Part shown: piece by piece, positions 24,599 through 38,318 of the stretch
How the letters are laid out: each line of letters starts with the position of its first letter
How positions within the stretch are numbered: the first letter of the stretch is position 1
Source of the DNA: Candidatus Marinacidobacterales bacterium
GTDB lineage: Bacteria; Acidobacteriota; Vicinamibacteria; Marinacidobacterales; DATDRI01
Length of the DNA: 64,000 bases
Assembly (NCBI GenBank): GCA_965226495.1
Contig: OZ245365.1
Location: 5,529,783 to 5,593,782, forward strand
Direction of reading: 5' to 3'
Notes under the pieces: model-generated
Told to the model about the DNA's origin: nothing
What the model saw: the letters and a program-made list of their open reading frames with translations, nothing else
The model's database searches: none
Program-made: the position numbers and the translations under genes

Positions 24599-26621
24599 TC
24601 ATCCGGGAGCTGTGTTGCACTTACTTTATGAATTCGCGGCTAGTAACACCACTCCGGCGCAGGACGACGGCTTCCCCTTCAACCGCGACTTTTACAACGA
24701 CTTCACGGCGCAGGTCGGTGGACCGATCATAAAGGACAGGCTCTGGTTTTTCGGCTCCTACCAGCACCAAGAGGACTCCAGTACCCAGCCCGGCGTCAAT
24801 CCGGACTTCCCGACCCTGACCGAGAGCGACCGGATGTTCGTCAAGGTCAATTATCAAATTAATGACAACCACCGGCTGCTCTTCGCTCTCCATAACGACT
24901 GGTACTTTCTGCCAGGCGAACAAAATGCCAACACCGCTCCCACCACTGTGGGTGTAGAGTCCGGAAACAACCCGTCACCCAATCTGACGTACACCGGAAT
25001 ATTCTCGGCAAACACTCTCGTCGAGGCCCGCTTCTCGGGTTTCTACGGCACCGACCACGGAGACCCCATAGTGGAGGGAGAGCCCCGAGTAAAACCTCGC
25101 TTCTACAATCTCGATACGGGTCAGATTACGGGAGGGGTCTACTACTGGTACGACAGCAACGTTTTCAAGACCGGCGTTTCCGGCAAAGTCTCTCACTACG
25201 CCGATCAGTTTCTCGGAGGAAGCCACGACTTCAAGTTCGGCGCTCAGTACAGCCGGGGCGGTGTGGACAACGGCGCCTACGGTGCCAACGACTTCATCTA
25301 CACGTACGAGTACTACGGCGAGCCCTATGCCTATGGATACTCCTACGATGCCTTTGGCTACGGCGGCATCGCAGAAACCATTGGTGTCTTTGTCGATGAC
25401 AGCTGGGCGGTCAACGACCGACTCACGCTCAACCTAGGTCTTAGGTACGATCACAAAGTCGCCTCGGTCCCCGAGCTTTCCGTCCCTGACGCGGCCGGGA
25501 ACCTTACGGGTGCAACCTTCCCCGCGAGGGATCTCTACACGTGGGACACTATCTCACCCAGGCTGGGCTTCAACTTGAGACTGACCACGGATGGAAAAAC
25601 AGCCCTGAAGGGACATTGGGGTCGCTACTACCGGGGCATCGTGACCGGCGAGTTTGTCTACGAGCTCGGGTTGACACCCGCCTCGACTTTTGCCGGGTCC
25701 TATGATCTAGCCACACAGCAGTTCACAAGCCTAGAAGAGTTCGAGTCCAGTTTGAACAAGGGCGTGGATCCGGACTACTCCAACCCATACACCGATCAGT
25801 TCATTATTGGTTTCGAGAGAGAGCTCACCACCAATTGGGGGTTCTCCGCCAACTATGTTCACAAGCGGGGGAGGAACAACGCCGCCTGGAGCGCCACCGG
25901 TGAGTACGAGGAGATCACCTATATCGACGACCAAGGCACAGATGCCACCGGCAATCCCATCACGGTCTTGGCTCTGGTGAGTGATCCAGGCGACCGCTTC
26001 TTTACCATCGGCAATGACGACCGGATGTCGACCGACGTGAACGCCGTCACCATCACGCTCAGGAAACGGATGTCCGACCGCTGGCAAATGACCAACTCCC
26101 TGGTCTTCATGAAGACTAGCGGACGACTGCCTTCTAGTATCGACTCCTTCGGTCGTCAGAACGCTTCTCTCGTTTTCAGCGACTTCGGACAAAATCCCAA
26201 CGACTTCATCAATACGGACGGACGACTCGTCAACGACCGACCGGTGGAGTTCAAGACCTCGCTCGTCTACGAGTTCCCCTTCAACCTCATGCTCGCGGCC
26301 GGTTGGAGGCTTCAGAGCGGGAAGCCATGGGCGAGGACGGTTCGGCCCGAGGGAACCGGGCTCGTCACCGAGATCTTGGCAGAGCAGATTGACGGTAGTC
26401 GCCGCGTTTCCACGTGGAACCTCCTCGATCTGAGAGCGCAATATGCCATCGAGCTTGGCGGCGGAACGAATGTCGCGTTTTTCGGCGACGTTTTCAATCT
26501 GTTCAACGAAGACGCCAACGAGGAGGTCTTGAGCACGCTCGGCACGTCGGAAAGCTTTGACTTTCCTAGCTTCTTCGTGCTTCCACGCCGTTTGATGCTT
26601 GGCGCGAAGTTCCGCTTTTAG
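24599..26621 (+). pseudogene. TonB-dependent receptor, 3' fragment (beta-barrel, ends ...AKFRF)
   Basis: ...LLYEFAASNTTPAQDDGFPFNRDFYNDFTAQVGGPIIKDRLWFFGSYQHQ... through to a C-terminal aromatic residue, typical of an outer-membrane barrel. Continues the 22790 ORF in frame once the IS is removed. Confidence 0.75.
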
Positions 26622-28435: not shown

Positions 28436-29773
28436 GTGACGAGCTACCACGCCCCGCTCGCTTGGCTTGGCGGCCCATCGCTGGCGAGCAACGTCCTTTT
28501 CAGTGTCGAACATGGGCAAGTCACCAACATCCGAGCGGCTGCGGACCCGACCGAGGCATCCCGACTCGGCGGCATCGTCCTCCCCGGCTTGGTAAGCGCG
28601 CATTCGCATGCTTTCCACCGCGCACTTCGTGGGAAGACGCATGGTGAAGGTGGCGATTTCTGGGCCTGGCGAAACAAGATGTACGCAATGGCCAATCGGC
28701 TCAACCCGACCACTTACCGCCGCCTTGCGACCGAGGTGTTCGGCGAGATGCTGCGAGCCGGGATCACAGCAGTCGGCGAATTTCACTACCTCCACCATCA
28801 GCCCGACGGCGCTCCGTATGCTGTAAGGCATGCAATGGAACACGCTATCGTGGGAGCCGCCCGCGACAGCGGTATCCGCCTCACGTTGATCGACACGCGC
28901 TACCTGTCCTCCGACATCGACGGATCGCCCCCGTTGCCCGAGCAACGGCGCTTCTCCGATGGGACCGTGAACGACTGGGCTACGCGAGTACGAGAACTCG
29001 CCGAATCACTCGACACGCCGACAGTTCGACTCGGTGTGGCCGCCCACAGCGTGCGAGCCGTGCCGGCACCAGATCTTCCGAACGTCGCGGCCCTCGCCGA
29101 CGAGCTCGACGCGCCGGTCCATGTCCACATATCGGAGCAGCGCGCCGAGAACGCCGCGTGTCGCGCCGCGCATGGCACCAGTCCCACAGCGCTCCTTCGC
29201 GACACCGGAGTGCTGAACCAGCGTGCGACGGCCGTGCACGCAACTCACTTGGAGGAAAGCAACATCGCAATCTATGGGTCTTCCGGAGCAGGCGTCTGCT
29301 TGTGCCCGACGACCGAACGCGAGCTCGGCGACGGGATCGGCCCGGCCATCGAATTGCGTGACGCAGGCGTACGACTCAGTCTCGGGAGCGACAGCAACGC
29401 GGTCGTCGATCTGTTCGAAGAGGCACGCGCCTTGGAGTTAAACGACCGGCTCCGTCTCGAACGACGCGGGATTCATGCACCCGAGCATCTGATGACGGCC
29501 GCAACAAGCGGCGGGATGCGCGCGTTGGGATGGGGCGACTGGCGGCCGCTCTCGGTCGGCGCTCCTGCCGACTTCATCGTGCTCGACCCGAACGCTGCGG
29601 AACTTGCCGGGTTCGAAACGGCCGACGGTGTCGGCGGGCTGCTGTTCGCGGCAACGCCGAGGGCCGTCTCGGACGTGGTGGTGGCCGGAGAACAGGTCAT
29701 ACGCAATGGTGAAAACGTGGGAGGACAATCTCCAACCGGTCTGGCTGCGGCAATCTTGGCGGTGTCGTCATGA
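28436..29773 (+). CDS. hutF: Formimidoylglutamate deiminase
   Basis: GTG start. YHAPLAWLGG...NVLFSVEHGQVTNI and SAHSHAFHRALRG match HutF (amidohydrolase superfamily, about 450 aa). Confidence 0.82.
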   Translation: MTSYHAPLAWLGGPSLASNVLFSVEHGQVTNIRAAADPTEASRLGGIVLPGLVSAHSHAFHRALRGKTHGEGGDFWAWRNKMYAMANRLNPTTYRRLATEVFGEMLRAGITAVGEFHYLHHQPDGAPYAVRHAMEHAIVGAARDSGIRLTLIDTRYLSSDIDGSPPLPEQRRFSDGTVNDWATRVRELAESLDTPTVRLGVAAHSVRAVPAPDLPNVAALADELDAPVHVHISEQRAENAACRAAHGTSPTALLRDTGVLNQRATAVHATHLEESNIAIYGSSGAGVCLCPTTERELGDGIGPAIELRDAGVRLSLGSDSNAVVDLFEEARALELNDRLRLERRGIHAPEHLMTAATSGGMRALGWGDWRPLSVGAPADFIVLDPNAAELAGFETADGVGGLLFAATPRAVSDVVVAGEQVIRNGENVGGQSPTGLAAAILAVSS

Positions 29774-31002
29774 CAATCTCCGTTGACACCGTGATCGTCG
29801 ACGGGATCGTTGCAACCTTGCAATCCGGATCGGCTGGATCGGAGCCATACGGGCTGCTCAGCGACGCCGTCATAGGGATCACCGATGGCCGCATCAGCTA
29901 TCTCGGTCCGGAGGTCGGTGCCGAAACCAAGCAGCGTTGGTCCGTCGGCGGCCGGTTGATCACACCCGCCCTCATCGACTGTCACACCCACCTCGTCTTC
30001 GGAGGCGAACGCATCACCGAGTTCGAGCGACGACTCGGTGGCACCACTTACGAAGAGATTGCGAGTGCCGGCGGCGGCATCCTTTCGACAGTCACAGCCA
30101 CCAGAGCCGCGTCGAACGACGAACTTTTTGATTCCGGCGCTCGCCGCCTCCGCTGGCTACTACAGAGCGGTGTCGGCACGGTGGAGATCAAGTCGGGCTA
30201 CGGGCTGAATGCCCACCATGAGCTACGCATGCTGCGGGTGGCCCGACGTCTCGGCGACGCGTTGCCGGTGCGGATCGTGACGTCGCTCCTCGCGGCTCAC
30301 GCCATCCCTCCCGAACATCGAGCAGACCCGGACCGTTACATCTCCGAGATCTGCGAAGACATGATCCCGGCGGCGGCGGAAGAGGGATTGGCCGATTCTG
30401 TGGATGCGTATGGCGAACGGATTGCATTTACACCGGCACAGGTCCGCCGGGTCTTCGACGCGGCGCGCGACGCCAATCTAGCAGTGCGATTGCACGCCGA
30501 CCAGTTGAGCGATTCGGGCGGTGCCGCTTTGGCGGCCGAGTATGGCGCGTTGTCCGCGGATCACCTCGAACACACCTCCGATGCAGGCGTTGACGCGTTG
30601 GCGACTGCGGGCACGGTCGCGGTACTGATCCCAGGAGCGTCCGCCTTCCTGAACGAGGAAGCACGCCCACCGATCGCAAAGATGCGTCGCGCCGGCGTGC
30701 GGATCGCGGTCTCAACCGATCTCAACCCCGGGACCGCTCCATTCGGTTCCCTCCAAGAAGCGATGGCATTGGCCAGCGCTCGCTTCCGGCTGACACCTGA
30801 GGAAACGCTGGCCGGGACCACTCGACATGCGGCGGCCGCTCTCGGTTTGGGCGACACCGGGGTTATCCAGCCCGGCATGCGTGCCGACCTCACGGTTTGG
30901 GACGTGAAGTCGCCGGCGGCTTTGTCGTACTGGTCCGGGGCACCACTCTGCGCGGAGGTATGGATCAACGGAATCATCCACTATGAAAGAGACGAACCAT
31001 GA
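29770..31002 (+). CDS. hutI: Imidazolonepropionase
   Basis: LIDCHTHLVFGGERITEFERRLGGTTYEEIASAGGGI is the HutI signature. 4-bp ATGA overlap with hutF. Confidence 0.9.
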   Translation: MTISVDTVIVDGIVATLQSGSAGSEPYGLLSDAVIGITDGRISYLGPEVGAETKQRWSVGGRLITPALIDCHTHLVFGGERITEFERRLGGTTYEEIASAGGGILSTVTATRAASNDELFDSGARRLRWLLQSGVGTVEIKSGYGLNAHHELRMLRVARRLGDALPVRIVTSLLAAHAIPPEHRADPDRYISEICEDMIPAAAEEGLADSVDAYGERIAFTPAQVRRVFDAARDANLAVRLHADQLSDSGGAALAAEYGALSADHLEHTSDAGVDALATAGTVAVLIPGASAFLNEEARPPIAKMRRAGVRIAVSTDLNPGTAPFGSLQEAMALASARFRLTPEETLAGTTRHAAAALGLGDTGVIQPGMRADLTVWDVKSPAALSYWSGAPLCAEVWINGIIHYERDEP

Positions 31003-31580
31003 TCCGCCCCATTCCACAGATCGGCGACCCCATCCTGCGAACCGCCGCCACCGCCGTTACCCTCGAAGAGCTCCGTGGCGAGGAGACGCAGCAACTCATC
31101 GACGACATGATCGAAACGATGCGCCATGCCGAAGGTGCCGGAATCGCCGCCCAGCAAGTCGGCGTCCCGGTAAGAATCTGCATCCTCAGTGTGGAGCGGA
31201 ACGAGCGGTATCCCTACAAGCCACCGCTTCCCCTCACCGTGCTCGTCAACCCGGTGCTCGAGGTTCTCGAGGACGTCACCTTTCTCAACAACGAAGGCTG
31301 CTTGAGCGTGCCGCTACGTGGCGATCTCCATCGTTTCATGACCGTACGCGTCCGCTCCTTGGATCGGCATGGGGAGAAGTTCGAACAGACCTATCGCGGT
31401 TTGAGTGCCGGCAGCGTGCAACACGAGCTCGATCATCTCGACGGGCACCTCATCGTCGACCGGATCCACGACCCCACTACGTTCTCGACTTGGGACAACT
31501 TCAAGATGTACGGGTATGACGACTACATCCGGCGGATCCAGCCCGTGATCGAAAAGACCGAACCGCGATCGGAGAAGTGA
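30999..31580 (+). CDS. def: Peptide deformylase-family metallohydrolase (paralog embedded in the hut operon)
   Basis: All three PDF motifs are present: GAGIAAQQVGV, EGCLSVP, QHELDHLDG. 193 aa. 4-bp ATGA overlap with hutI. No fmt gene adjacent. Confidence 0.85.
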   Translation: MIRPIPQIGDPILRTAATAVTLEELRGEETQQLIDDMIETMRHAEGAGIAAQQVGVPVRICILSVERNERYPYKPPLPLTVLVNPVLEVLEDVTFLNNEGCLSVPLRGDLHRFMTVRVRSLDRHGEKFEQTYRGLSAGSVQHELDHLDGHLIVDRIHDPTTFSTWDNFKMYGYDDYIRRIQPVIEKTEPRSEK

Positions 31581-31615: not shown

Positions 31616-32147
31616 CTACTTGCGGGCGGTCTCGGTATCCTTCTCAGCTTTTTCAGGTGCAGGATTTTCGGGCTCCGGAGGTGGACTCCAGAAGTTCGGG
31701 CTGCCTCCGGCCTTTGCGGCATGCTCACCATGGTAGAGAGCGCAGTTGAAGACGATGCGGAAGGTGCCAAACGATTGGCCTCGCCATTGCGGTCGAAAGC
31801 CAAGCAGGACGACGTGACCCTTGCCGTGGCGAACATCCAAAGCGGCAGCGAAACCGTTGATGTGCTCCTCACCTAGCAAGTAGCCCGACAGAAGGGGAGA
31901 GCCCGCCTCGCCAGGCCACCATCGCAATGAGTGTGGGTATCGATGAATCCGGGAGCGACGACCAAACTCTCAGCATCAATGATCTGGGCGGCCGTTTTCC
32001 CGGCCAGCTCCCCTATCTCGACGATGGTGTCTCCCATGATGCCGACGTCGCCTCGAAACCCGGAATCTCCGGAACCATCAACGTTCCGTTCGTTCTGATG
32101 AGGATGTCAAAATCTTCACCAGCGCTGACACAACCGAACGAGATCAA
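31616..32147 (-). pseudogene. Remnant of an N-acyl-D-amino-acid deacylase-like amidohydrolase (frameshifted, internally deleted)
   Basis: Minus-strand frames read (M)CVSAGEDFDILIRTNGT then a shift, then [53 protein letters not shown], the classic amidohydrolase N-terminus. It is followed by a stop and an unrelated about 100-aa ORF. It is far too short for the roughly 480-aa family. Confidence 0.5.
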
Positions 32148-32267: not shown

Positions 32268-33140
32268 GTGTTACGCTCGCGCGAAATGCCAGTCTACAAC
32301 GGCACCGGCATGCTCAAGAAGGTCTTGCTCTGTCCGTCCACCTATTACGAGCTGGTTCCAGTCGACGACTACGCGCGAACCGCGCTCGAACGAGGCGACA
32401 AGGTCGACCACGAGAAGGCCGAGGCACAGCACAACGAACTAGTTGATATCTACCGAGATGCAGGGGTTGACGTCTTTTGGACCGAGGAGCCCGACCCCAC
32501 CCGCCACTACGCAGTCAACGCGCGGGATTTCGCCGTCAACTCTCCTGAAGGGTTCGTCATCTGTCGCTTCAAGTATTCGGAGCGCCGAGGAGAAGAGATT
32601 CCCGGCGAAAAACAATTACGGAAATTGGGCTACAACATTTTCGGACACATCGAGCGCGGTTGTTGGGAAGGCGGTGACAATAAGTACATCGACGACAAGA
32701 ATCTCGCCACCGGAACAGGGGAGCGAAGCACCTGGCCCGGTATTCACAACGCACAAGAGATATTCGCCAAACAAGGCATCAAGGTGCATGGCATTCCCTT
32801 CCCACCGAAATGGACTCATCTTGATTGTCTTTTCGCTCCCGTCGCCCCGAAGCTGGCTTTGATCGTGAAATCCGAGGTCCCCGACTGGTTCGTGGGATTT
32901 CTCGAAGGCCGAGAATGCGAGCTGGTAGACATCCCCGTAGAAAAAGCCGAAGGAGAGGTCGCCCTCAACGTATTGTGTCTTGGCAAGGATCGAGTTATCT
33001 CTTTCAAAGACAACACGTATATCAATGACATCTTGAAAGGCCTGGGGCTAACTGTCTACGCACCAGATCTAAGCGAGTACACCGAGCGCGGTCAGGGACC
33101 GCATTGCCTGACCTGCGAGCTCGATCGAGATCGGGAATAG
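32268..33140 (+). CDS. Amidinotransferase-superfamily enzyme (DDAH/arginine-deiminase-like fold)
   Basis: CWEGGDNKYIDDKNLATGTGERS (EGGD...G.SERT motif) and C-terminal GQGPHCLTCEL (GG.HC catalytic Cys). About 290 aa fits DDAH-size enzymes. Start is GTG 32268 or ATG 32286. Confidence 0.6.
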   Translation: MLRSREMPVYNGTGMLKKVLLCPSTYYELVPVDDYARTALERGDKVDHEKAEAQHNELVDIYRDAGVDVFWTEEPDPTRHYAVNARDFAVNSPEGFVICRFKYSERRGEEIPGEKQLRKLGYNIFGHIERGCWEGGDNKYIDDKNLATGTGERSTWPGIHNAQEIFAKQGIKVHGIPFPPKWTHLDCLFAPVAPKLALIVKSEVPDWFVGFLEGRECELVDIPVEKAEGEVALNVLCLGKDRVISFKDNTYINDILKGLGLTVYAPDLSEYTERGQGPHCLTCELDRDRE

Positions 33141-33215
33141 GCATGCTCGTCAGCTCGGGTCGTATCAACAATATTTATTTTGAAAAAGCCCGCTAGTGAA
33201 CGGGTAGGAGATGCC

Positions 33216-33568
33216 ATGAAGATCACTCTATTTCGACGCCTGGCTCTAACCGTTTTGTTACGGGGTGATGGGCGGCAGCATGCAACCAACAAGGCCACGT
33301 CCAGGTGCTCCTCAACATGATCGAGTTCGGGATGAATGTGCAGGAGGCGGGTGAGGCACCACGGTTCCGGCACTTCACCGGTCCAAACGTCGGCTTCGAA
33401 TCGGGGATCGACATCGAAGTGCTGCAGGAGCTCATCCGAAAGGGTCATCGGCCCATGACGCGCATGGGAGTCTATGGCGGATACCAAGCCATCCGGATTG
33501 ATTGGGAAACCGGCGTCCTCATCGGAGGCTCCGATCCCCGCAAGGACGGGGCCGCCATGGGTTATTGA
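33216..33568 (+). pseudogene. ggt: gamma-Glutamyltranspeptidase remnant: signal-peptide-like start plus only the last about 90 aa of the small subunit
   Basis: 33305-33568 encodes (Q)VLLNMIEFGMNVQEAGEAPRFRHF...GGYQAIRIDWETGVLIGGSDPRKDGAAMGY*, which matches the GGT C-terminus (…LQMVVNSIDYGMNVAEATNAPRFHHQW...GASDPRSVDDLTAGY). 33216 encodes MKITLFRRLALTVLL in another frame. The N-terminal 400+ aa are missing. Confidence 0.7.
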
Positions 33569-33628
33569 GCTGAATCAGGGGAGGTGCAGTTCAACCGCAG
33601 TTTGTGTCGGGGCCGAGTCGAAGGAGAC

Positions 33629-35638
33629 CTATTTCTTCTCTTGCTTTTCACGTTTCCACGGTTCCCAGTCCATCCCCATGACATATTTCTGCATCCACCT
33701 GATCTCTTCATTGTCGCGGGTGCGCTGGTGTCTAGCTTCCTGGAAACGATGTGGCTCGCGCGGAAATCTCACATAACGCACCGGCGCCTTGCCGATGTCT
33801 TTGAGGGCGGTAAAGAACATCATGGCCTGGTTGGCGGTACTGACCAGATCGCGATCCCCGTGGAGTAGGATCGTTGGGGTCGTCACGTTCTTGACGTACC
33901 AGAGTGACGAAACCCGGCGCCACTCCTCCGGATTGATCCAGTGGGCTCCCCCAATATAGTGAAGCCTGAGGTCAAAGCTGTTCCCGGGTCCCGTCTCTGC
34001 CGTCCAACTTCCCACCATCGCCCCGAGCGACGCGGCCTTGAAACGGTTGGTCTGAGTAATAACCCAGCTCCCAAGAATTCCTCCCCAACTCCAGCCGCGC
34101 AGCGCCAGCCGCTCTGGATCGACGTTTCGCTCTGCAATCACATAGTCGACGCCGGTCATGAGATCCTCGTACTCGCCACCGCCCACGTCGCCCATTAGTG
34201 CAGTCAGAAGATCATCGCCATAGCTGTCGCTACCGCGGATGTTCGGCCCCAGGGAGGCGTACCCCAGGCCCCCGAAAATGTGGAACTCGGTCCGGAACCG
34301 GTTCCAATAGTGATCCTCGGGGCCGCCGTGGATGTGGAGGATGAGGGGAAGCTTGGTCCCGGCCCGATGGTCCCCGGGCAGATAGAACACCCCTTCGATC
34401 TCCATCCCATCCTTGCTCTTCCAGCGGATTATCTCCGCCTTCGCCATCAGAATCTCTTTTTCGATCCAGGGGTTGGCGTTCGTTAGACGCACTGGGTTGA
34501 GCTCATCCAACGAAGACGAATACAAATCGGTCGGAGTTTTGAAATCGTTGAGCGAGTAGACCATTCTCGATCGATCTTTCGAGAAATCGAGAGCGCGGAG
34601 GGTACCGCTGACGCTCGTGACGTCGGTGACACGGTTCGTCGCGACGTCGAGGCGCTGGAGATTGCTGTTCGTCCGGCGCGTCTCGTTGAACAGCAGGCTC
34701 TTGCTGTCCGGCGCCCAAGTAAGATTGGAGATCTCGCCTTGATTCTGACCTTGAAGTTTCTTCTTCTCTTTTGTTTCCGGATTCATCACCCAGATAAAAC
34801 CGTTGGTTAGTTCGTACTCGCCGTCGGAAGGGGCGTGGTAGGCAATGGTTTCGCCATCCGGAGACCAGATAACGCTGCTTTCGGGAGCGTTGTTATTGGT
34901 GAGGCGAACGATCTCAGGCTTCCCGGTATCGACGAGGTAGAGCTCCGACAAGTAGAAGTAATCATCGAGTTCCTGCCGCTCCGCCGCAAAGACTGCTCGC
35001 TCGCCGTCCGGCGAGATGTCGAACTCACTGATGACGAGCTCTTCGTCCGTGAGGCGGATCTCTTCCATGGAAGAAAGGTCGAGCGCCCAAAGGTTGCGCC
35101 AACTTCCTTCCTCTCGCCCATGCGGGCCCTCACGGACGAAGTATGCATCCTCCCCCTTGTCATGCTCCTTTTCCTTTTCCTCGCTCAGCGCCTCGTCGGC
35201 GGTGAAGAATATCCCACGCCCGTCCGGAGACCATTTGTAAGACTCGACACCGTTCTCATGATCGGTGAGTCTCGTGGCCTCGCCACCATCGGTTCTCATC
35301 CAAAAGACCTGGTCGTCGTCATCGATGGACCTAAAAAAAGAGAGATACTTCCCGTCCGGGGAGAACTGGAACGATTCGCCCCCCGCGTCCCCAATGAACT
35401 GAGTGGCATCCCCGCCTCCGGCGGGAATCATGTAGTATTTCTTCTTCCTCTCGTTCTCGTCCCAATCGAGCTCCGATTCAGAAAAGAAGACCCATTCGCC
35501 ATCCGGGGCCATGATCACGTCTGCGATGCGGATCATGTTCAGGGCGTCGTCGACAGTCATGGGACGGCGTGCCGAACCTTGTGCGAGAAGGCTCGAACCA
35601 ATGAACACACCAGTAACGATGCTGATGCTTACGCGCAT
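33629..35638 (-). CDS. S9-family serine peptidase (N-terminal beta-propeller plus prolyl-oligopeptidase/acylaminoacyl-peptidase catalytic domain)
   Basis: Signal peptide. WD40-like propeller repeats (FSPDGKYLSF, WSPDGRGIFF, WSPDGETIAY). Catalytic GWSWGGILGS (GxSxGG) with downstream Asp/His region (LLHGDRD...PHRF). Confidence 0.85.
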   Translation of the reverse strand: MRVSISIVTGVFIGSSLLAQGSARRPMTVDDALNMIRIADVIMAPDGEWVFFSESELDWDENERKKKYYMIPAGGGDATQFIGDAGGESFQFSPDGKYLSFFRSIDDDDQVFWMRTDGGEATRLTDHENGVESYKWSPDGRGIFFTADEALSEEKEKEHDKGEDAYFVREGPHGREEGSWRNLWALDLSSMEEIRLTDEELVISEFDISPDGERAVFAAERQELDDYFYLSELYLVDTGKPEIVRLTNNNAPESSVIWSPDGETIAYHAPSDGEYELTNGFIWVMNPETKEKKKLQGQNQGEISNLTWAPDSKSLLFNETRRTNSNLQRLDVATNRVTDVTSVSGTLRALDFSKDRSRMVYSLNDFKTPTDLYSSSLDELNPVRLTNANPWIEKEILMAKAEIIRWKSKDGMEIEGVFYLPGDHRAGTKLPLILHIHGGPEDHYWNRFRTEFHIFGGLGYASLGPNIRGSDSYGDDLLTALMGDVGGGEYEDLMTGVDYVIAERNVDPERLALRGWSWGGILGSWVITQTNRFKAASLGAMVGSWTAETGPGNSFDLRLHYIGGAHWINPEEWRRVSSLWYVKNVTTPTILLHGDRDLVSTANQAMMFFTALKDIGKAPVRYVRFPREPHRFQEARHQRTRDNEEIRWMQKYVMGMDWEPWKREKQEKK

Positions 35639-35639
35639 A

Positions 35640-36130
35640 ATTGAATCACGGAGCTATTCCAACCTTCCTCTGTGTTCTGGGCACCGCGGATGCCGACCTG
35701 CACCGCCCGCTTGGGATCGAGCAACCCCTCTTCGACAGCCCGTCGGAACGGCGCGGCGTGCACCTTACGGCAGAACTCCGCAATATCTTCGAGCGCTTCT
35801 TCCACGTTGTAACCATGTGTCAGAATGACGTCACCCCAAATCGGCCACGCGGCAAAGCTCGTAGGGATCGATCTTGCTGACGTGATGGATAGCGCGCATC
35901 AGGCTCGAGCTGTTTCGCATTTCGCAAGGGCCATGCCGTGCGCCGGTCCTATTGGTGACCGCGATGTCGAACGGCACACCAATCAAGCCGATGTCTACTT
36001 CAGAGGGATCACGAACGAGCGGGGCACGCATGAAGGTAGCGATGTCCGTGTAGCGCGGCGACAGCACGGGGTTATAGTCGTCGGCCACGAGCCGTGTCCG
36101 CTCCTTTGGCTTGTTCACGATATATAGCTT
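35640..36130 (-). pseudogene. Agmatinase/arginase-family (ureohydrolase) remnant: frameshift, about 50-aa internal deletion removing the Mn-binding motifs, and 3' truncation
   Basis: Frame 1 reads DIATFMRAPLVRDPSEVDIGLIGVPFDIAVTNRTGARHGPCEMRNSS...RVADLG*, the family N-terminus. After a +1 slip at TTGGGG it continues DLGDVILTHGYNVEEALEDIAEFCRKVHAAPFRRAVEEGLLDPKRAVQVGIRGAQNTEEGW...LCA*. This skips the GGDH/DAHxD region and ends where the S9 gene starts. Confidence 0.65.
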
Positions 36131-36170
36131 CCCCGTGCTCGTTGAACCCTCTTGGACAGTGCCCGGACCG

Positions 36171-38318
36171 ATGATGATAATGATAGCCGTGACGACAAGG
36201 CAAACCGCTGCTCGGTTGGCCGCCTGCACCTGCCTCTGGGTGACAGCGCTCTTTGCCACATCGTGCAATTGGCTCTCAGATGAGCCACCACCAGCGGCAC
36301 GGCACCTCGTCCTCGTCACCATCGACACGTTGCGCGCCGATCGTCTCGGGATCTACGGCAACAAGGACGTGGCCACACCACACATGGACCGGCTGGCGGA
36401 AGAAGGAGCGATGGCACCGGACGCAACGGTCCATGTGCCTCTGACTCGTCCCTCACACGCGTCCCTGTTTTCCGGTCTCCTGCCTTCAGAGCATGGTATC
36501 CGCGATAATGTCGCACCGAGCCTCGACCCCGACATCCCGTTGCTAGCCGAGGTCCTGAAGGCAGCGCGCTTTCGCACCGCCGCCTTCGTCTCTTCGGTCG
36601 TGCTCGAAGCGCAGTCCGGCCTCGACCGAGGCTTCGAACTCTACGGCGATGAGTTCGAAGAAGAAGACGGTGACGACGCGCGTTTCCTGAACACGGTCCA
36701 GAAACGTGGTGACCTCACGATGGACGACGCCCTGGCTTGGCTCGAGTCGAATAGCGCCGGCGACAGGCTCTTCGCGTGGATCCATCTTTACGATCCGCAC
36801 GACCCCTACGAACCTCCCGAGCCCTATGCCACTCAATACGCCGACCGACCCTACGACGGCGAGGTGGCGTGGTCCGATGAGCTGCTCGGTCGCCTCGACG
36901 AGAAACTAGAACTATTGGGTCTACGGGACGACACGCTCCTCATCGTGACATCTGATCACGGCGAAGGCTTGGGAGACCACGGGGAAACCCTTCACGGTTT
37001 CTTCCTCTACCAATCGACTCTCGCCGTGCCACTCCTCTTTCGTGGGCCCGGCGTGGTTCCCGGTCAGCGCCTGTCGGTGACCGCGCGAACTATCGATCTG
37101 TTTCCAACAATGCTCGACCTGCTGGGCTTGAACATTCCGCCGGAGATCCACGTCTCCGGACGTAGCCTGGCAGGTGCGCTGCGGGGAAGGGAAGACCTCG
37201 CCGAGGAATCGTCTTATGCCGAAACCTTGGTGCCGCTTCTCCATTTCGGATGGAGCGATCTCCGATCATTCCGCAAAGGTCGTTGGAAATACATCGAGGC
37301 ACCTCGCCCGGAGCTTTACGACTTGGAGAACGATCCGGGGGAGACGAAGAATCTGGTGAGATCGAAATCGTCCGCGGCCGACTCCCTCCGGTCCAGTCTC
37401 GCTCAAGTTCTCGAGGCGGAGCGCGCGACAGCAAAGTCCGACGTGAGCGATGTCCCTCGCGATCTTCTCGAGAAGCTGGGGGCGCTCGGTTACCTCGGTG
37501 CCGGCGCGTCGGCGACGGAATCCCCGGGAGCGGATCCCAAGGACAAGATCGAAGAGTTTCGTGTCGCGAACGCCTTGATCCGGGAAGGACTCACTCTCTT
37601 CCGCGAGAAGAAATTTTCTCAAAGCATCGAGCGGTTCGAGGAATTGCTCCGTCGACGAATCGAGAGTTTCGAAGTGCACTACTATCTTGGCCGTGGGCTT
37701 TTGGCCTCGAAACGATACTCGGAGGCGGCACCTCACTTCGAAAAGGCGATCGAGCTCCAACCGAGTTACGCAGCTGCCTACGAAGCGCTTGCCGAGTGCC
37801 GCGCCAGCAACGAGGATCTGGAAGGCGCGGTGGCGGCCCTGCAGGAGGGTCAGCGGGCCGTTCCCGGCGACGCCGGGCTGTTCAAACGCGAAGCGAGGGT
37901 TTGGCGATTGCTCAAGAACGGACAGGAGGCACGCCGCGCTTATGAAGCCGCCCTTCCGCTGGCACCCGATGACGCCCTCCTTCGCGTGCAGCTCGGGGAG
38001 CTTCTCCGCGATTTGGGTCACTTAGACGATTCGGTGCGGCGCCTGAAGGAAGCGATCGAGCTCGAGCCTGACCGGGCGTCCTTCTGGAACTCCCTCGGAA
38101 TGGTGCTGGGAGGAAGGGACCAACTCGACGAAGCCGAAAACGCCTTCCGGGAGGCATGGAAGCGGGACGAGTCCAACGCCCAGTACGCCTACAACCTCGG
38201 TTTGGCGCTTCTCCGTCTAGGACGCGCTGAGGAAGCTCGGGGTTTCTTCGAAACCACCCTTCAACTAGACCCGAAGTTCGAAGCCGCCCGCGTCCGTCTC
38301 GTCCAAATGGGCTCCTGA
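36171..38318 (+). CDS. Sulfatase-like (alkaline-phosphatase superfamily) domain fused to C-terminal TPR repeats; Thr in place of the formylglycine Cys/Ser
   Basis: LVLVTIDTLRADRLGIYGN, TPHMDRLAEEGA, then VPLTRPSHASLFSG aligned to the canonical C-T-P-S-R-A-S-L-L-T-G gives T-R-P-S-H (nucleophile Thr, Arg to His). The C-terminal about 280 aa are TPR units. Lipoprotein-like signal (…ALFATSC). Start ATG 36171; the track start is 36111. Confidence 0.72.
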   Translation: MMIMIAVTTRQTAARLAACTCLWVTALFATSCNWLSDEPPPAARHLVLVTIDTLRADRLGIYGNKDVATPHMDRLAEEGAMAPDATVHVPLTRPSHASLFSGLLPSEHGIRDNVAPSLDPDIPLLAEVLKAARFRTAAFVSSVVLEAQSGLDRGFELYGDEFEEEDGDDARFLNTVQKRGDLTMDDALAWLESNSAGDRLFAWIHLYDPHDPYEPPEPYATQYADRPYDGEVAWSDELLGRLDEKLELLGLRDDTLLIVTSDHGEGLGDHGETLHGFFLYQSTLAVPLLFRGPGVVPGQRLSVTARTIDLFPTMLDLLGLNIPPEIHVSGRSLAGALRGREDLAEESSYAETLVPLLHFGWSDLRSFRKGRWKYIEAPRPELYDLENDPGETKNLVRSKSSAADSLRSSLAQVLEAERATAKSDVSDVPRDLLEKLGALGYLGAGASATESPGADPKDKIEEFRVANALIREGLTLFREKKFSQSIERFEELLRRRIESFEVHYYLGRGLLASKRYSEAAPHFEKAIELQPSYAAAYEALAECRASNEDLEGAVAALQEGQRAVPGDAGLFKREARVWRLLKNGQEARRAYEAALPLAPDDALLRVQLGELLRDLGHLDDSVRRLKEAIELEPDRASFWNSLGMVLGGRDQLDEAENAFREAWKRDESNAQYAYNLGLALLRLGRAEEARGFFETTLQLDPKFEAARVRLVQMGS

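Follow-up and report, generated by a model that had tools for sequence, protein, structure and literature searches.

The locus under study comprises the remnant of an arginase-family gene (hereafter, the relic), an intact gene for an S9 peptidase adjoining it, an intact gene of the DDAH/arginine-deiminase superfamily and fragments of neighbouring genes. All lie within the window, the whole 64-kb stretch of DNA that was analysed, which is part of a ~6.3-Mb genome. The features are listed below in descending order of coordinates.

36174-36203, minus strand: promoter-like, sigma-70-like site TTGCCT-18-TATCAT, candidate for the relic-S9 transcript (consensus scan)
36128-36134, minus strand: weakened Shine-Dalgarno sequence, GGAGG to GGAAG (DNA alignment)
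36121-35654, minus strand: arginase-family relic, remnant of a 327-codon gene (six-frame translation and DNA alignment)
36116-36121, minus strand: former start codon ATG changed to ATC (36121-36119), followed by GTG (36118-36116) (alignment)
35834-36118, minus strand: relic segment 1, ortholog codons 2-96, frame A, holding R65C (translation, alignment, tblastn)
35834-35837, minus strand: GGGG run with a +1 G insertion that makes a TGA stop at 35833-35831 (alignment)
35752-35833, minus strand: relic segment 2, ortholog codons 97-123 (DVILTHGYNVEEALEDIAEFCRKVHAA), frame B (translation, alignment)
35751-35756, minus strand: junction of a 153-bp in-frame deletion (two blastn HSPs with a 10-nt overlap and offsets 153 apart; alignment)
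35659-35751, minus strand: relic segment 3, ortholog codons 175-205 (PFRRAVEEGLLDPKRAVQVGIRGAQNTEEGW) (blastn, alignment)
35654-35658, minus strand: junction of a 364-bp 3' deletion (~35658/35657), then a probable ancestral TAG (35656-35654) (alignment, blastn)
33629-35638, minus strand: complete gene for a 669-aa S9 peptidase of the prolyl-oligopeptidase family that bears a signal peptide (Pfam Peptidase_S9, E = 4e-39)
32268-33140: intact DDAH/arginine-deiminase-superfamily gene ('amidinotransferase')
31616-32110, minus strand: last ~65-100 codons of an M14 carboxypeptidase-like gene fused to the first ~70-100 codons of a frameshifted amidohydrolase gene

Six-frame translation of the minus strand yielded two reading frames for the relic. 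Frame A reads VNKPKERTRLVADDYNP...CRVADLG (36118-35834) and terminates at 35833-35831; in the translation of 36400-35600 it ends in VNKPKERTRLVADDYNPVLSPRYTDIATFMRAPLVRDPSEVDIGLIGVPFDIAVTNRTGARHGPCEMRNSSSLMRAIHHVSKIDPYELCRVADLG. Frame B, one base out of step with frame A, contains DVILTHGYNVEEALEDIAEFCRKVHAA joined to PFRRAVEEGLLDPKRAVQVGIRGAQNTEEGW, and its full read, DVILTHGYNVEEALEDIAEFCRKVHAAPFRRAVEEGLLDPKRAVQVGIRGAQNTEEGWNSSVIQLCA, stops at 35631-35629, i.e., within the S9 gene. Both pieces scored above the gathering threshold of the Pfam Arginase profile (PF00491), of whose 280 positions they cover 2-57 (E = 1.8e-8) and 132-166 (E = 1.4e-6), and the intact ortholog used as a tblastn query retrieved the relic with an E value of 9e-73. 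Segment 1 shared 91.7% amino-acid identity with the ortholog of the related locus L004. No other arginase-family sequence, including the C-terminal half, was found by tblastn in the 64-kb window. The relic is the descendant of a PF00491 member and not a functional member: it matches the profile, and it has neither an uninterrupted frame of ~300-330 codons with a start codon nor any of the metal-ligand motifs GGDH, DAHxD and SxDxDxxDP, all three of which fall within the deletions.

The lesions were defined by DNA alignment with three related loci (L003, L004 and L007), by blastn offsets and by coordinate look-ups. The start region reads ATG GTG AAC in L003, L004, L007 and L085 and ATC GTG AAC in the window, and the Shine-Dalgarno stretch is GGGGAAG in the window versus AGGAGG or GGGAG in the relatives. 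The R65C substitution (TGC at 35926-35924) affects the arginine of the GPRE motif, which is invariant in the protein alignment. These three changes add to the original prediction, which had described an arginase-family gene inactivated by a frameshift and by the loss of its metal-binding core and C-terminus; the PF00491 matches and the aligned lesions bear this description out. The frame-shifting extra G is real, as GAT CTG GGC GAC of the orthologs reads GAT TTG GGG TGA in the window. The predicted internal skip of about 50 aa corresponds to the in-frame 153-bp deletion of 51 codons (ortholog residues 124-174, HAA to PFRR), with which GGDHS (131-135) and DAHTD (156-160) were lost; its junction shows CGCG microhomology within an imperfect 9-nt repeat, CACGCCGCG / CATGGCGCG. 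The 364-bp deletion removed ortholog residues 206-327, the C-terminal 122 codons, together with SFDVDGLDP (245-253). Homology to the orthologs ends past EEGW (35659), with a breakpoint that is exact only to within a few nucleotides, and the length balance of the relic closes (984 + 1 - 153 - 364 = 468 nt, equal to 36121-35654). The TAGC..ATTCA..ATG stretch that precedes S9 in the window matches TAGCATTCAGCCATG of L003 and TAGCCGTG of L004, and because it resembles their native stop and spacer, the ancestral TAG was probably kept at 35656-35654. The MAFFT placement suggests another origin of the 3' deletion, by recombination at ATGCGCGT between the S9 start ATGCGCGTA and ATGCGCGTC inside the gene (codons GMRV); this was judged less likely, as the 19-22 nt before the ATG fit the native stop and spacer better than coding sequence (6/20 matches). 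Together, the two deletions eliminated 173 of the 327 codons, and 153 homologous codons remain. In the arginase fold, the Mn ligands are supplied by the GGDHS, DAHTD and SFDVDGLDP motifs. Since all three signature motifs lie within the deletions, the relic cannot encode an active enzyme, and none can be produced from what remains of it.

An assembly or sequencing artefact, with read or assembly errors behind the frameshift and deletions and an intact gene in the organism itself, is brought to mind by the position of the frameshift within a homopolymer, and also by the records of the relatives, which look like long-read assemblies with some neighbouring genes split as well. However, the relic stretch was 100% identical in the window, in the ENA contig ERZ25071126 and in a separately assembled Logan contig (run ERR14231557); the three assemblies possibly stem from the same sample, and their agreement argues against an assembler-specific artefact. 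In addition, two clean microhomology deletions combined with changes to the start codon, the Shine-Dalgarno sequence and R65 are atypical error patterns, and the flanking genes are full length. We consider an artefact highly improbable. The junction of the first deletion (AAGGTGCAYGCCGCGCCGTTYCGNCG) was not found among JGI metagenome contigs, and a literature search for 'Marinacidobacter' found no papers.

Elsewhere in the window, at 25683-25712, the ENA contig (L001, 19956-21318), otherwise identical to the window, has ~1.3 kb extra in or beside a TonB-dependent-receptor-like gene, past which its identity drops to 95.6%; the two assemblies may simply differ here, or the indel may distinguish strains.

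The intact 327-codon gene was found in at least eight related Acidobacteriota loci (L003/L005, L004, L007, L088/L089, L090, L091, L092 and L094). In six of them the same S9 peptidase gene follows after a stop-to-start spacer of 2-60 nt, which measures 9 nt in L003/L005, 2 nt in L004, 14 nt in L007, ~47 nt in L088 (L088/L089), ~30 nt in L091 and ~60 nt in L094; these six are all the intact-gene loci with sufficient downstream sequence that retain an S9 gene. No S9 match (E < 1e-10) followed the intact gene within the next 4 kb of L090 or 0.6 kb of L092. L005, a Candidatus Marinacidobacterales MAG (class Vicinamibacteria, Acidobacteriota) and the one named relative, and L007, an Acidobacteria MAG, came from a scan of species-representative genomes, and the intact gene upstream of S9 was confirmed in both by tblastn. 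More distant S9 loci in that scan were without the ureohydrolase gene. In L003 and L004, the intact gene is on the same strand as S9 and divergent from a sulfatase-TPR gene, as in the window, and it faces away from this gene wherever upstream sequence is available. Collinearity of the window with L004 extends from 45.9 kb to the end of S9 at 33.6 kb, and the S9 peptidase of the window is ~81% identical to the L003 and L004 orthologs, both on megabase contigs. Some genes of the relatives are themselves broken: the sulfatase-TPR ortholog of L004 (7414-8885) has lost ~0.8 kb and is called as pieces of 328 aa and 144 aa, and hutH of L003 (15383-16959) is split between ORFs of 221 and 302 aa.

As the intact orthologs also end 2-60 nt before S9, the abutment of the relic and S9 is ancestral and not the signature of a breakpoint. 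The gene had been predicted to end exactly at the S9 start codon; it does adjoin S9, but homology stops 20 nt before the ATG at 35638 and the frame-B ORF runs on to its stop at 35631-35629. As judged from these relatives, which carry the intact gene, the truncated form itself is not ancestral. Eight independent intact syntenic orthologs, together with the disabling lesions in the window, identify the relic as a pseudogene that arose by in-situ decay. It is very probable that the gene decayed in place. It stood first in a two-gene unit that is conserved in this Acidobacteriota lineage and consists of a GpuA-like guanidino-acid ureohydrolase gene followed by the gene for a secreted S9 peptidase, transcribed away from the sulfatase-TPR gene. 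In the window, the ureohydrolase gene took at least five lesions, namely the 153-bp and 364-bp deletions, both at short direct repeats, the +1 G frameshift, the change of the ATG start together with the weakening of the ribosome-binding site, and R65C. A related 584-bp contig (L085; 39-584) encodes a product with 90% amino-acid identity to the relic N-terminus and keeps the ATG, R65 and the reading frame. Near codon 106 it carries a TAA in frame, and both GGDHS and DAHTD are preserved downstream. In a single short contig this stop is possibly an error; if real, it hints at a second, independent inactivation of the same ureohydrolase and, hence, at repeated loss.

According to the original prediction, a segment carrying the S9 and 'amidinotransferase' (DDAH-like) genes had been inserted or rearranged into the locus, where it truncated three hydrolase genes (arginase-family, GGT and amidohydrolase). 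Such an event would account for relics on both sides of two intact genes. It would also suit the DDAH-like gene, which has a lower G+C content (0.52-0.55 vs about 0.60-0.65) and few homologs: a search of 5.8 billion proteins gave 46 hits at E ≤ 1e-10, most of them from Anaerolineae and a few from Acidobacteriota. The product of this gene scores under every NCBIfam equivalog cutoff. However, six related lineages have the S9 gene directly behind the intact arginase-family gene, and in the locus L086 a DDAH-like homolog, 93% identical to the window protein, stands within an intact five-gene block. There, the amidohydrolase (590 aa) and M14 peptidase (908 aa) genes run in one direction, and the DDAH-like, beta-lactamase-like (470 aa) and GGT (557 aa) genes run in the other. 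Because L086 carries this block intact, the DDAH-like gene of the window is a survivor and not an insertion. By blastn, the window maps onto the L086 block with 80-89% identity (85-89% at the DNA level for the relics) and three gaps. Gap 1 (3.88 kb) fused the amidohydrolase N-terminus to the M14 C-terminus, with a junction (~31905-31909) at an imperfect 11-12-nt direct repeat, GAGCCCGCTTC / GAGCCGGGCTTC. Gap 2 (1.38 kb, at 33140-33161) brought the beta-lactamase-like gene down to ~90 bp (region 33140-33574), and gap 3 (1.33 kb, at 33252-33257, within GGT) left the last ~85 codons. These three deletions total 6.6 kb, lie 2-4 kb from the relic and left only the DDAH-like gene of the block intact. 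With the two focal ones included, there are five deletions in ~4.5 kb, with a loss of ~7.1 kb. Each junction is explained by an internal deletion, so that the damage ascribed to an insertion is that of deletions within resident genes. The synteny of the 31-36 kb region agrees, as S9 is present in six of the relatives with an intact ureohydrolase and both amidohydrolase and GGT are intact in L086. The search for mobile elements revealed no transposase, long inverted repeat or tRNA, only short, chance-level repeats were found between 31.0 and 36.4 kb, and the scans with Rfam (E ≤ 1) and for tRNAs (31-37 kb and 28-40 kb) gave no hit, with neither a guanidine riboswitch nor an integration-site tRNA. 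An insertion or rearrangement is hardly likely at all, and decay in place remains the preferred reading.

The same genes occur in different orders among the relatives, which suggests a functionally linked but fluid neighbourhood. In L088/L089 the order is DDAH-like, arginase-like and S9, with a convergent beta-lactamase-like gene (L088); in L090 the arginase-like gene is followed by a convergent beta-lactamase-like gene and then by a DDAH-like gene in that same convergent orientation, with no S9. An Aminicenantes locus (L019) shows permease, amidohydrolase, S9, beta-lactamase-like and M14 genes in that order. Transposase genes (Transposase_mut, DDE_Tnp_1, ISL3, IS91 and DDE_3) flank the neighbourhood in several relatives (L003, 1-1629 and 21443-22028; L086, 758-1654; L088, 1-2759 and 14255-15382), which fits the shuffled gene order; none was present at 31-38 kb of the window.

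The enzyme type of the lost gene was assessed from the L004 ortholog and from the relic. The ortholog scored 422 bits against 3NIP, the Pseudomonas aeruginosa 3-guanidinopropionase, 307 bits against the guanidinobutyrase 3NIO, ~210 bits against agmatinases and less than 100 bits against arginases. The best match of the relic itself was also 3NIP (140 bits; 79 bits for 3NIO). Among the NCBIfam models, the ortholog passed the agmatinase model TIGR01230 (190.8 vs a cutoff of 174.3), so annotation pipelines would label it 'agmatinase', and it fell below the cutoff of the agmatinase model NF002564 (289.9 vs 302). On the hutG model TIGR01227, the ortholog reached 129 bits, under the cutoff of 229.15, and the relic 35 bits. 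By these bit scores, both stand closer to the GpuA/GbuA type than to agmatinase, arginase or HutG, and the relic is, as judged from sequence, a GpuA-like guanidino-acid hydrolase and not HutG.

This bears on the proposal that the relic goes back to a hutG that once belonged to the hut genes nearby and became redundant through the hutF route. The window does carry hutF (formimidoylglutamate deiminase, 28436-29773) and hutI (29770-31002) ~5 kb from the relic, as a separate block, and hutU, FTCD and hutH adjoin S9 in L003. However, the orthologs are not encoded within a hut operon; they are paired and co-directional with S9 and divergent from the sulfatase-TPR gene. The hut cluster near the L003 ortholog is on the opposite strand and has its own FTCD, and hut genes are absent from that position in L004, L088 and L090. 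Given also the shortfall on TIGR01227 and the match of both ortholog and relic to 3-guanidinopropionase, a hutG origin is extremely improbable. A peptide-deformylase-family gene follows hutI in the window (region 28436-31580), with a start at 30999 that overlaps the hutI stop, and it could serve as a stand-in for N-formylglutamate amidohydrolase. This gene and hutF are missing at the syntenic place in L004, where hutI is kept.

Over the 153 retained codons of the GpuA-like relic, dN/dS was 0.084 versus L003 and 0.039 versus L004, and the intact L003-L004 pair gave 0.036. By parsimony, unique nonsynonymous and synonymous changes numbered 5:16 in the window versus 3:17 and 2:25 in the relatives. 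R65C was missed by this count because L003 and L004 use different Arg codons; with R65C added, the window branch has 6:16, and the terminal-branch nonsynonymous excess is only modest. The retained codons thus evolved at the same dN/dS as between intact orthologs, which indicates purifying selection for most of the divergence and points to a recent inactivation. The dN/dS values of the S9 gene (0.14) and the DDAH-like gene (0.06) show that both are still under purifying selection.

The low dN/dS could also be read as a sign of coding function in the remnant, either as a new small protein made up of the N-terminal ~95 aa or as a coupling ORF in frame B (35805-35629) that overlaps the S9 start. 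A GTG follows the lost ATG, and the frame-B stop overlaps the S9 ATG region (ATGCGCGTAA). However, the dN/dS equally matches a shared history followed by recent loss, the ATG is gone and the Shine-Dalgarno sequence degraded, the invariant arginine is replaced, and a family of similarly truncated proteins was not seen in the syntenic relatives. A new function as a protein is, on balance, very unlikely, and recent decay of the resident gene accounts for the retained codons.

The candidate promoter sits between the relic and the divergently transcribed sulfatase-TPR gene, and the consensus scan found no promoter-like or terminator-like site on the minus strand between the relic start and S9. The intergenic stretch upstream of the relic is well conserved in L003 and L004 (alignment columns 1-60) and in part encodes the sulfatase N-terminus on the other strand. 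Both deletions are internal and left untouched the promoter region, the 5' portion of the gene and the start of S9. Judging from the consensus scan, S9 would still be transcribed from a promoter upstream of the relic, and the remnant probably persists as a promoter-bearing leader of the S9 transcript, a role that would account for this placing of the deletions. In the relatives (L003), S9 is preceded by the SD-like AAGGAAAGG; this stretch was lost with the 3' end of the gene, and translation of S9 may therefore be initiated differently in the window. A wider scenario, which is offered tentatively and which we regard as rather doubtful when taken as a whole, joins these observations. The remnant would be kept as the S9 leader, possibly with a short coupling ORF, while a peptide/guanidino neighbourhood would have been dismantled gene by gene with retention of S9 and the DDAH-like gene, the latter of which could take over guanidino-group metabolism.

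The locus holds an ordinary pseudogene, decayed recently, that comes from a known enzyme family and lies within a conserved gene pair, and nothing in it would surprise a specialist. For annotation, it should be marked as a GpuA-like guanidino-acid hydrolase pseudogene, instead of two 'arginase family' ORFs or hutG, and the S9 and DDAH-like genes should not be read as horizontally inserted cargo. The comparison also brings out a recurrent neighbourhood in this Acidobacteriota lineage, composed of guanidino-acid hydrolase, S9 peptidase, DDAH-like, beta-lactamase-like, GGT, amidohydrolase and M14 genes. As a clear case of clustered short-direct-repeat deletions, the locus is modestly useful for the study of gene loss in uncultured lineages.

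Among known systems, GpuA (PDB 3NIP/3NIQ) aligns end to end with the L004 ortholog (residues 21-323 of the ortholog vs 14-316 of GpuA), and the surviving segments of the relic align to residues 14-115 and 164-192 of 3NIP. GpuA and GbuA (3NIO), both of PF00491, differ from the frameshifted window copy in that GGDHS, DAHTD, SxDxDxxDP, 173 of the 327 codons and the ATG are absent from the latter. The likeness of the intact orthologs to GpuA and GbuA is one of sequence, from which a guanidino-acid substrate is predicted, and their pairing with S9 is not repeated among the more distant homologues sampled. The agmatinase SpeB (TIGR01230 / NF002564) belongs to the same fold family, but the ortholog scores ~210 bits against PDB agmatinases versus 422 bits against GpuA. 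The formimidoylglutamase HutG (TIGR01227) is of the same superfamily, but the ortholog scores far under its cutoff and has no place in a hut operon. The closest parallel in mode of decay is with bacterial pseudogenes formed by short-direct-repeat deletion upstream of a retained operon partner, which the locus resembles in its microhomology junctions, its homopolymer frameshift and its intact downstream gene, and from which it differs only in local density, with five deletions in ~4.5 kb.
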